Position numbers and translations under genes: made by a program
Shown here: positions 18,878 to 20,503 of the stretch, piece after piece
Position numbering within the stretch: position 1 is the stretch's first letter
Layout of the letters: every line of letters begins with the position of its first letter
Assembly: GCA_040217195.1 (NCBI GenBank)
Contig: JAVJNR010000002.1
Coordinates: 384,001 to 448,000 of the forward strand
Reading direction: 5' to 3'
From: Leptospiraceae bacterium
Lineage (GTDB): Bacteria > Spirochaetota > Leptospiria > Leptospirales > Leptonemataceae
DNA length: 64,000 nt
Notes under the pieces: generated by a model
What the model saw: the letters and a program-made list of their open reading frames with translations, nothing else
Told to the model about the DNA's origin: nothing
Databases searched by the model: none

Positions 18878-19981
18878 CTAAATGGAACTGTCTGTGCTGC
18901 TGGATCCAGGCAGCAGAGATCCTAGCTGCTCCAGAAGGGAGCCACCTCCCATAAGCTTGATCTCTTTTACCTTCTCAACAATCTTCTCCATGGATTCCAG
19001 CTCCTTGAGTCGCAGAAGGGTGGGGTTATTTTCCATCAATTTGGCTGTATTCATCAAGCTGCGCGTGGATGCAGTTTCCTCGCGACGCTGAATCAGGTTG
19101 GCCTGGGCCTGCTTTTCTGCCAGTAGCACTCGATTCATGATTTCACGAACCTCTCCAGGAAGAATAATATCTTTGGCTCCAGCAGAAATCAATTCGTAGC
19201 CTATGCGACGGGCCTCCTCTCTTACATGATTCAGAACCGTGCTTCCAATTTTATCTCGATTCTCCAGCAATTCATCCAGAGTGAATCCCCCGGTGTATTC
19301 GCGCAGAGATAGCTGCAATGCTGTATAGAGTTGTTGCATTGGGTTCACAGCTTCTCGCAGAATTTTTTCAGGATCAGCTGCCTGTAACTGGCAGGTAAAA
19401 TTTATTCTTAGGGTTACTTTATCCTTAGAGAGTAGTTCCTGTCCGGCAATATCCAATTGCTGCACTCTGAGATCGCAGGAGCTTACTTCGACGGAATCCG
19501 GGCACTTCCAGTAAGCGTAATCCCCGGGCTCCAGTAGTCCCCGAAATTCTCTGTTTATGAACAGTGCTCCTTTTTCATAGCTCTGCACAGTGAATACATT
19601 TACCAGCTCAATGACCCCTGGCCTGCGAAGCCAGTCCCGTTTAATTCCTTCTTCGATGAACGGTTGGGAAAGATCAGCAAAAACAAACTCATATTTATGC
19701 AGGCCCTTCCAGTATGCGTGTCGACCTGGTTGCAGGGTTTCCAGAAACACACCATCTTCAAAGATCAGGCAAATCTGTCCGTCCCTGACATCCAAAAACT
19801 TCAGATAATCCTCTGCATTTGCTAGCTTTTCTATTAATGCAATATCCGAATCGCCCACCAGACGCCCCCTTCGTTTGTGAATTTCGATCAGCCCGGGGAA
19901 AAAATAGAATCCAGGGCCAACGATCTTATCTGGAGAGCCATACTTGTAAACCAGTCCACAGTTTTGATTCGCAATTCGCAT
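18878..19981 (-). CDS. Slipin family (SPFH/band-7) protein with three N-terminal beta-rich repeats
   Basis: DLR..LDIAGQELLSKDKVTLRIN, KDIILPGE, AEKQAQANLI.RREETASTRSLMNTAKLMENNPTLLRLKELE. Repeats VGPGFYFF, LQPGRHAYW, LEPGDYAYW. SD GAGGAG. Confidence 0.93.
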   Translation of the reverse strand: MRIANQNCGLVYKYGSPDKIVGPGFYFFPGLIEIHKRRGRLVGDSDIALIEKLANAEDYLKFLDVRDGQICLIFEDGVFLETLQPGRHAYWKGLHKYEFVFADLSQPFIEEGIKRDWLRRPGVIELVNVFTVQSYEKGALFINREFRGLLEPGDYAYWKCPDSVEVSSCDLRVQQLDIAGQELLSKDKVTLRINFTCQLQAADPEKILREAVNPMQQLYTALQLSLREYTGGFTLDELLENRDKIGSTVLNHVREEARRIGYELISAGAKDIILPGEVREIMNRVLLAEKQAQANLIQRREETASTRSLMNTAKLMENNPTLLRLKELESMEKIVEKVKEIKLMGGGSLLEQLGSLLPGSSSTDSSI

Positions 19982-20029
19982 TGCAATCTCCTCACTGCAA
20001 TCCTGTTGCTACGGATTGCAAACTACTTA

Positions 20030-20276
20030 GATTCAAGAGAGGAAAAGGGGTAGCTTCGCCATTCGTAACAGGCGGGGAACAGGTTTAGCAAGATTGCATC
20101 CCTTTGAGCCCGGCTTTCGAAGTTAGCCGTAGCCTCCACCGTCCGCCGCTTTCGCAGGAATTCATCTAACGATATCCCCCATTCCACAAGGCCCGCTTCG
20201 AACTGCCGCGAACGGCGGGCTAGGCTTCCCCTCTTCCCGGGTGATCCTTTTTACAAGGGATCAGCTTTTTCCTGAA
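20030..20276 (-). ncRNA. Highly structured RNA domain between the permuted tRNA module and the slipin gene
   Basis: Long-range stem GGAAGAGGGGAAGC (20237-20224) pairs with GCTACCCCTTTTCC (20054-20041). Nested stems GGGGGATA/TGTTCCCC, GCCCGC/GCGGGC, CGGCT/AGCCG, CGCC/GGCG, CTGC-GAAA-GCGG, CCG-TTCG-CGG. Flanking hairpin GATCC/GGATC. No credible ORF. Confidence 0.7.
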
Positions 20277-20355
20277 GAGTGTACTGCTCTACCAGCTGAG
20301 CTAATGAAGCTAATGCTTCATGCGAGAATCGAACTCGCCACCTGCACATTTGGAG
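20277..20355 (-). ncRNA. Circularly permuted tRNA-like module (YrlA/Y-RNA-like topology)
   Basis: Minus strand reads CTCCAAA TGTGC AGGTG GCGAG-TTCGATT-CTCGC ATGAAGC-ATTA-GCTTCAT TA GCTC-AGCTGGTA-GAGC A GTACA CTC. That is anticodon 3' strand, variable loop, T arm, acceptor stem closed by a 4-nt loop, D arm, then anticodon 5' strand. Confidence 0.9.
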
Positions 20356-20503
20356 CACCTTTCTAGTCGCAGAGCGAAATACCGTACCTGATTCAGGCGG
20401 CACCGTATGGCAGTAAAAACCAGTACCCCGGGCTTTGCGATTTCGATAACGCGCGCACCAAGGGAAGCCTGTAGTCCAGGAATCTGCAAGCCTTTTATGG
20501 AAA

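Follow-up and report, generated by a model that had tools for sequence, protein, structure and literature searches.

A structured RNA with a permuted tRNA module upstream of a slipin gene in a Leptospiraceae bacterium: a variant of the predicted Band-7/tRNA-like RNA pairs

The DNA analysed here is a stretch of 64,000 nucleotides (nt) from a Leptospiraceae bacterium (assembly GCA_040217195.1, contig JAVJNR010000002.1, positions 384,001 to 448,000), referred to below as the window. On its minus strand, a structured non-coding RNA of about 420 nt precedes the gene of a slipin, a protein of the Band-7 (SPFH) type. RNA and slipin form a pair that is a variant of a previously predicted kind, a Band-7 gene with a tRNA-like RNA, for which defined extents, a searchable model and signs of expression can now be given. 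Conservation, covariation, gene neighbourhood and modelling support a two-part module of RNA and ring protein that is tied to RNA repair, much as the first-pass annotation of the sequence had proposed for an RNA and a cage protein. With moderate confidence, it is proposed that the locus provides a scaffold for the response to RNA damage and translation stress, in which a stable RNA cooperates in trans with a soluble ring of the SPFH protein.

The RNA consists of three parts, namely a 5′ domain, a permuted tRNA module and a 3′ domain (Table 1), and is single-copy in its own genome. The first-pass annotation had described about 370 nt of structured RNA that begins with the tRNA module and runs directly into the Shine-Dalgarno sequence. 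The structured RNA is real but longer, and neither end lies where it had been placed. In five relatives of the same genus, conservation at the 5′ side reaches about 90 nt beyond the earlier start and covers a 5′ domain that had been missed, whereas the 3′ side is separated from the Shine-Dalgarno sequence by about 50 nt, which contain a hairpin that is not conserved. In the genus alignment (six sequences, about five lineages), 28 of 110 predicted pairs show two-sided changes. The folding energy of the whole RNA is only modestly better than that of shuffled sequences (z −1.79 and −1.76), and for this reason covariation, not energy, is taken as the evidence. A functionless relic of tandem tRNA genes or a chance structure would be in line with a whole-RNA z of only about −1.8 and with dimeric tRNAs, which can score as YrlA according to a passage of PMC4201824. 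This explanation is largely refuted by the covariation and can hardly be maintained, as the non-tRNA domains covary across phyla, the split stem pairs and contigs from RNA libraries are present.

Such contigs map to 20087-20454 and come from four runs of three studies; one contig has 359 nt and zero mismatches. Four of nine listed runs were used, and the runs had been picked by their match to 18800-20600. The upstream contig ends at 20445, 20454, 20454 and 20418 are a weak hint at transcription and at a start near 20454, as contigs from RNA libraries may include DNA. The slipin coding sequence is represented by one contig of 164 nt and the flanking genes by almost none, but contigs cannot rank genes, and nothing was concluded from this. 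Contig depths of 1394-3122 were also noted; they represent the RNA of a relative and are a poor measure of expression. About 30 nt above the contig ends at 20454, a CTTG core is present in 6/6 same-genus copies, and a consensus scan revealed no match to a sigma-70 promoter above the RNA, the CTTG site included.

The two helices of the 5′ domain scored in 57 of 117 loci, compared with 0-1 in five shuffles. In 49 hand-picked copies, 84% of the cells are paired (65% in shuffled and 33-50% in slid controls) and the covariation score is 0.537 vs 0.197. These copies were picked with a pattern that favours the structure, and held-out matches are therefore the fairer test. With a covariance model built on the 49 copies and a cut-off of E≤0.01, matches were obtained at 43 of 71 held-out loci, all of them on the slipin strand and 386-943 nt upstream of the gene. 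The model also matches a Photobacterium locus, has one match in the genome of the bacterium studied here, and the domain is matched by no Rfam family. Of the real loci, L193, L194, L197 and, weakly, L198 were missed, so that the model cannot show absence. Two further candidates were rejected. A leader shared with rtcB was not supported, as a look-alike motif before the rtcB of the own genome is not conserved in five relatives and the model matches the genome only once, and a pseudoknot from the P2 loop was inconsistent when inspected by eye.

The claim of a circularly permuted tRNA module was borne out, with a T arm, a loop-closed acceptor hairpin of 7 bp and a D arm in this order. The module was not called as tRNA or tmRNA by ARAGORN and matches the Rfam family YrlA with 39.4 bits (E 8.4e-7), which is below the gathering score of 69; the listed YrlA matches of relatives reach 29-50 bits. 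The search against Rfam, suggested in the first-pass annotation, thus touched only the tRNA core, and weakly, with no full-length family match. The non-tRNA flanks are matched by no Rfam covariance model, the hits being limited to YrlA, tRNA and weak or partial matches at chance level. The anticodon stem is split: one strand follows the D arm, and its pairing partner is located five bases before the T arm. In the first modules whose D arm matched the search pattern, which are the only ones counted, this stem has 4 or 5 of 5 bp in 47/47 cases with varied sequence, compared with 3-13 in slid controls. In the genus, the acceptor stem shows two-sided changes in 6/7 columns. The would-be anticodon takes 25 different triplets among 45 modules, which characterises the module as a mimic of shape and not as a decoder.

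Permuted tRNA genes exist in algae and archaea, and it could be argued that the module is a precursor of this kind, which would be cut on both sides, circularised by RtcB, opened by RNase P and provided with CCA to give a spare tRNA. A joined copy would read a Lys(CUU)-like loop with C32, U33, A37 and A38, and the 36 tRNAs of the genome include only tRNA-Lys(UUU) for lysine. Nevertheless, CU at 32-33 is found in only 22/45 modules and AA at 37-38 in 12/45, the anticodons are unconserved, acceptor stems often have 4-6 bp, and in this copy G48 breaks the Levitt pair. The acceptor loop is present uncut within contigs, and a circular joint is not listed among them, although contigs cannot show the absence of one. 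A precursor is thus considered very unlikely.

The organisation of the module varies between loci. In the same-genus loci L001-L004 it is opened at the variable loop and the anticodon hairpin is intact. Their D arm is identical (L001, L002) or nearly identical (L003, L004) to that of the second tandem module of L091 from the same family, so that these loci and the present copy may have arisen by reciprocal loss from a tandem ancestor. Two tandem modules per RNA are present in 30 of 126 loci. Acidobacteriota loci mostly carry a tRNA-like module in normal order behind the same 5′ domain, and this shared domain suggests that the canonical-order and the permuted forms are one family. As a separate observation, runs of ordinary-looking tRNA genes are located just upstream of the RNA in L053, L056, L160, L167 and L196.

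Lys and Asn tRNAs are the targets of the anticodon nucleases PrrC and colicin E5, and the RNA might be a decoy or tripwire for such enzymes. It would be cut instead of tRNA, and its cyclic-phosphate ends would feed RtcB or a WYL sensor, with the slipin as effector or container. An anticodon-like loop of 7 nt on an intact stem of 5 bp forms the end of L001-L004 and of many tandem copies, and GUU (11), UUU (6) and GAU (5) are the commonest triplets in a crude scan that includes false hairpins. This explanation is nonetheless improbable: the anticodon loop is not closed in the present copy or in L005, the triplet that follows the split stem has the 25 values mentioned above, there is no slipin homologue among 50,697 phage records, and the conserved flanking domains would be unneeded. 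A role as decoy or substrate in RNA damage and repair had been put forward in the first-pass annotation. The tie to RNA repair is supported, whereas the open anticodon loop of this copy speaks against its use as a decoy.

The multi-stem domain that had been described after the tRNA module is recovered in part, as the region 20275-20030 folds better than shuffled sequences (z −3.08, 1 of 200) but its internal fold is uncertain and varies between loci. The closing helix of 10 bp is kept in at least five of the six genus sequences, with two two-sided columns. A relaxed pattern detects the GGAUACCG motif of this domain in 74 of 117 loci and a strict one in 63, and 21 of these 63 loci also contain the CUCAA-like motif downstream. 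Between tRNA module and 3′ domain lies a hairpin with an A-rich loop, and hairpins of a similar kind were seen by eye, uncounted, in L007, L014, L031 and L089. A group I intron or a permuted tmRNA was considered for the 3′ domain and is unsupported in Rfam; a normal tmRNA is located elsewhere in the genome (C3). A two-piece tmRNA was rejected as well, since the acceptor has U3-A70 and not G3-U70 and there is no ARAGORN or Rfam call of a tmRNA in the window.

For the analysis of the distribution, 170 slipin loci were collected, of which 126 were kept after near-duplicates and loci with less than 450 nt upstream had been dropped. A T arm is found upstream of slipin in 118 of these 126 non-redundant loci and the permuted order of T arm, acceptor and D arm in 61. 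In an earlier set from which four short loci had been dropped, 80 of 86 loci have the T arm; 30 shuffling rounds gave 1.7 on average. According to the record titles, the loci belong to Spirochaetota, Bacteroidota, Bacillota, Acidobacteriota and Pseudomonadota. Carriers that are non-pathogenic and in culture include Chitinophaga skermanii (L062), Cohnella (L018 and L020) and Paludibaculum fermentans (L071). Together with the covarying 5′ domain, this agrees with the expectation of a structure conserved upstream of slipin homologues.

A slipin of this subfamily is encoded in nine of 150 other Spirochaetota genomes, and eight of the nine have the T-arm RNA. When the same 150 genomes were scanned blindly with the 5′-domain model, six matches were obtained, of which the four followed by a tRNA module are all located in slipin-bearing genomes. 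The other two, L185 (1500-1590, G046) and L187, have no tRNA module and come from genomes without this slipin; L187 is probably a chance match. In the Spirochaetota metagenome-assembled genome G137, the RNA and the slipin gene (L189 and L191) are unlinked: they occupy separate contigs, their neighbours are unrelated, and upstream of the gene there is no RNA, which fits an action in trans.

A cis-acting 5′ leader, in which the tRNA mimic would sense translation stress or tRNA-binding proteins and switch slipin expression, is possible but rather doubtful. It is suggested by the position of all 43 held-out matches upstream on the slipin strand, by the lack of a terminator-like site between RNA and gene on that strand, by the hairpin beside the Shine-Dalgarno sequence and by the two most conserved motifs of the genus, which could form an alternative helix of 9 bp (20384 with 20170). 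This switch pairing of the 5′ GUAU with the 3′ GGAUAC, although possible in the genus, shows no covariation and is not supported. Moreover, a change of C-G to U-A in P3 of L013, L017 and L022 is unaccompanied by a change of the 3′ motif, the hairpin beside the Shine-Dalgarno sequence is unconserved, the conserved structure stops well before that site, and RNA and slipin are unlinked in G137.

Several observations weigh against an RNA and ring protein that act in trans and in RNA repair. The RNA is almost always located 5′ of slipin on the same strand, as a leader would be, and no terminator-like site was found between the two on that strand. The unlinked case is a single assembly that is 87% complete and has Ns in the RNA, and a slipin without detectable RNA occurs in L096, L097 and L199, the former two being same-family genomes of one genus. 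Likewise, RtcB is absent from the examined flanks (3-5 kb, often shorter) of 84 of 117 RNA-bearing loci, the RNA-library contigs could derive partly from DNA, and the repeats of the slipin are not basic (K+R about equal to D+E, isoelectric point 5.5).

RtcB is encoded within 5 kb of slipin in 26 of 80 loci, and clusters with WYL genes lie near slipin in 14/80 and 12/80 loci. In Cohnella (L015:6089-7351), a gene for an RNA methyltransferase of the Hen1 type is located directly 3′ of slipin, which ties the module to a second RNA-repair system. A passage of PMC10272220 reports for Anabaena that loss of TrcR, the repressor of the translational-stress regulon, raises slipin alr0740 42-fold and rtcB 77-fold; alr0740 is a "slipin" by the name used in that study, and a related passage is found in PMC9938897. 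No TROVE protein was detected among 88 scanned neighbour open reading frames (of 113 with 420-720 amino acids, aa) at the loci of relatives.

Two loci outside the Spirochaetota were recorded in addition. In Escherichia coli (L200:4280-6727), slipin is followed by a nucleotidyltransferase gene and accompanied by a shortened T-arm RNA that the 5′-domain model missed; this slipin region is covered to at least 80% in 1629 of 5426 complete E. coli genomes. In Photobacterium sp. GJ3 (L201:2572-5471), a single run contains the 5′ domain, tandem tRNA-like modules that overlap, slipin and RtcB. A sigma-54-like promoter accompanies the unit of E. coli and precedes that of Photobacterium.

The slipin gene, which had been correctly placed on the minus strand, shows a Pfam match to Band_7 (PF01145) at aa 131-302 with an E of 2.7e-29. 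The maximum of the hydropathy (19-residue windows) is 0.89, and only one of 120 homologues reaches 1.6. The best sequence match in the PDB is the stomatin of Pyrococcus (E 3.6e-17), and the SPFH2 core aligns with this protein at a VIA Z of 16.8, a root-mean-square deviation (rmsd) of 1.8 and 106 aligned residues. An AlphaFold model was obtained with a predicted local distance difference test (pLDDT) score of 83.4 for the full slipin and 93.5 for aa 1-168. When the repeats were compared in isolation with VIA, the five highest-ranking structures were SPFH1 parts of HflK, erlin, QmcA and prohibitin, with modest Z values of 4.3-5.0, rmsd of 2.0-3.4 and 44-51 aligned residues. Three beta repeats ahead of the SPFH domain had been noted from the sequence; three exist, but the third lies inside the Band_7 match, which leaves two extra ones. 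Their G-x(9-11)-PG-x-Y pattern did not hold, the spacing being 13 in repeats 1 and 3 and 17 in repeat 2, which ends in H. The lengths of the homologues P0015, P0016 and P0056 (433, 504 and 638 aa) reflect different numbers of complete repeats, each of about 70 aa.

When three copies of aa 1-330 were modelled, a score of 0.64 was reached, compared with 0.14 for the best control; the score mark is reached by 20 of 30 solved pairs and by 1 of 23 single chains. The runs agree in at least 89% of the contacts, the partner pLDDT is at least 80, and the contacts link opposite faces of the copies over the length of all three repeats, an arrangement like that in the wall of a ring. The pass may reflect a memory of solved rings of this type and supports lateral packing only.

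The pair of RNA and slipin may work like Ro60 with its Y RNA, built from different parts. The slipin would form a membrane-free barrel, and the conserved 5′ and 3′ domains, which take the place of the Ro60-binding stem of YrlA, would dock on it. The tRNA module, predicted to show a normal elbow, would resemble a tRNA nicked in the anticodon loop, and this appearance could recruit or position repair enzymes that recognise tRNAs, such as RtcB and nucleotidyltransferases. In the organism studied here, RtcB would be supplied from another locus. Binding of the RNA to slipin, closure of a cage and an effect on RtcB are inferred.

The slipin gene is flanked by a GNAT gene on the plus strand, convergent to it, and by a gene for a fatty-acid hydroxylase or desaturase, and neither RtcB nor Ro60 is encoded nearby, as had been stated. 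Close slipin homologues belong to Leptonemataceae and Leptospiraceae genomes (73-79% identity). The module, described as standing alone, does so locally, whereas the genome has RtcB on another contig (C5), unlinked to slipin, and three WYL genes away from the locus. In the genome search that had been proposed, Ro60/TROVE and RtcR gave zero matches, as did RlaP in addition (assembly 93.7% complete). The WYL genes (G000:C10:274347-275312 and G000:C4:339383-340517), one of which adjoins tRNA-Asn and two of which are a tandem pair, are candidate regulators. Located 4-7 kb before the rtcB of this genome (L082:33-2974), three open reading frames are possibly a defence cluster; by eye, they look like a DNA methyltransferase, an ATPase of the HSP90 type and a protein of unknown kind. 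Tandem repeats of about 60 nt are present upstream of rtcB in L100 and L101 of the same genus, and a related unit precedes the rtcB of the own genome.

Table 1. Features of the RNA-slipin locus (positions within the window).
Feature	Position	Strand	Basis
Candidate −35-like promoter element (CTTG core), poor −10	20484..20490	minus	genus conservation, inference
Complete structured non-coding RNA (about 420 nt, approximate ends)	20036..20454	minus	genus alignment, RNA-library contigs
5′ domain with helix P3 GUGC..GUAU (20403-20379), preceded by hairpin P2 (20422-20408; UUC/U-rich loop)	20363..20444	minus	covariation, held-out matches
Permuted tRNA module, opened in the anticodon loop	20275..20350	minus	sequence, YrlA match, split-stem pairing
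Anticodon stem, 3′ strand	20348-20344	minus	part of tRNA module, then variable loop
T arm	20338-20322	minus	part of tRNA module
Closed acceptor hairpin, 7 bp, 4-nt loop, no CCA	20321-20304	minus	part of tRNA module
D arm	20303-20285	minus	part of tRNA module
Anticodon stem, 5′ strand	20284-20280	minus	part of tRNA module
Hairpin with A-rich loop (GAUC...AAAAA...GAUC)	20242..20263	minus	nearly invariant in genus
3′ domain, closing helix 20237-20228 with 20050-20041, internal fold uncertain	20039..20238	minus	folding, genus alignment
Conserved GGAUA(C/U)CG motif, then variable stem and CUCAA-like motif	20177-20170	minus	motif counts
Unconserved hairpin (20021-19995) and Shine-Dalgarno sequence (19993-19988)	19988..20021	minus	sequence; differs among L001-L005
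Slipin gene (RtcB-type Band-7/SPFH), 367 aa, no transmembrane segment	18878..19981	minus	open reading frame list, Pfam
Three tandem SPFH1-like beta modules, aa 1-168, the third being the normal SPFH1 subdomain	19478..19981	minus	model, fold matches
SPFH2 core and long coiled-coil helix, aa 169-345	18947..19477	minus	VIA, DSSP

Among the known systems, the soluble slipin with beta repeats, an SPFH shoulder, a long helix and no membrane anchor recalls the major vault protein (MVP) (vault background in parts of 10.1101/872010). Repeat 3 and the core align from about residue 457 of MVP (repeat 3 on 457-500) with Z 10-12, mainly by way of this repeat, the shoulder and the helix, and one alignment places aa 1-318 on MVP 324-690 (Z 11.3, rmsd 6.2, 222 aligned). 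In contrast, the identity is 10-12%, the slipin has 367 aa compared with about 800, stomatin scores higher (Z 16-17), SPFH1 is the best match of the repeats in isolation, and a TROVE partner, which the vault has in TEP1, was not found here. The RNA is unlike vault RNA, too. Neither aa 1-168 nor any of three longer homologues is matched by a vault model of Pfam at E≤10, MVP is absent among 19 PDB sequence matches at E≤1, and it is outside the top 50 matches of the isolated repeats, with which a kinship would still be compatible. "Vault-like", as the first-pass annotation had put it, is accordingly kept as an architectural analogy only, for a protein that is stomatin-like in sequence. A widespread bacterial vault-like particle, in which a membrane-free SPFH barrel directly binds the large multi-domain RNA and forms a compartment for RtcB-type repair, is conceivable but rather unlikely; the number of SPFH1 repeats would then set the height of the barrel and the RNA would display a mimic of a nicked tRNA. 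If true, such a particle would model how a stomatin-like ring became the vault ribonucleoprotein.

Stomatin, HflK/C and QmcA are nearest to the slipin by sequence and fold and share the order of SPFH1, SPFH2 and coiled coil. The slipin differs in that it has no anchor, carries at least three SPFH1 repeats and is genetically tied to an RNA.

With YrlA (RF02553), the module shares the order of T arm, loop-closed acceptor and D arm and the opening at the anticodon end, and with the system of YrlA and Rsr/Ro60 the combination of a ring protein and an RNA-repair context. Passages of PMC4201824 give as criteria for YrlA a Ro60-binding motif GNCGAAN0-1G near the 5′ end and a Ro60 gene within 4 kb. 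Measured by these, the present RNA has no such 5′ motif, its sole match being at 20060 near the 3′ end, and Ro60 was not found in the genome. It also remains at 39.4 of 69 bits and is about three times as long, and tandem modules occur in 30 of 126 relatives.

The closest precedent is the b7a-tRNA, which, according to a passage of the 2018 preprint 10.1101/312249, was predicted by Burroughs and Aravind in 2016 beside Band-7 and RtcB and was unvalidated; YrlA occasionally adjoins a Band-7 gene according to the same source. The statement of the first-pass annotation on Band-7 genes with tRNA-like RNAs near RtcB thus has a counterpart in the literature. Both systems combine a Band-7 gene with an adjoining tRNA-like non-coding RNA, often near RtcB in the relatives, whereas here the tRNA-like part is permuted and embedded as a module in a longer RNA (about 420 nt), and RtcB is unlinked. 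In the literature searched, the flanking domains, the full-length RNA and an experimental study were not found, nor did PMC7159879 and PMC6514570 yield anything of relevance; the 2016 paper and its supplements may say more. The 2016 prediction, unvalidated as of the citing preprint, is hereby turned into a defined RNA, which joins the b7a-tRNA and the "YrlA beside Band-7" cases. Bacterial RNAs that are both large and structured are rare, and the domains outside the tRNA module match no Rfam family here. Should the RNA bind the ring, a membrane-free role as RNA scaffolds would be gained for SPFH proteins, the question of the bacterial partners of RtcB would become testable in harmless species that are in culture, and the vault would gain a simple bacterial analogue.

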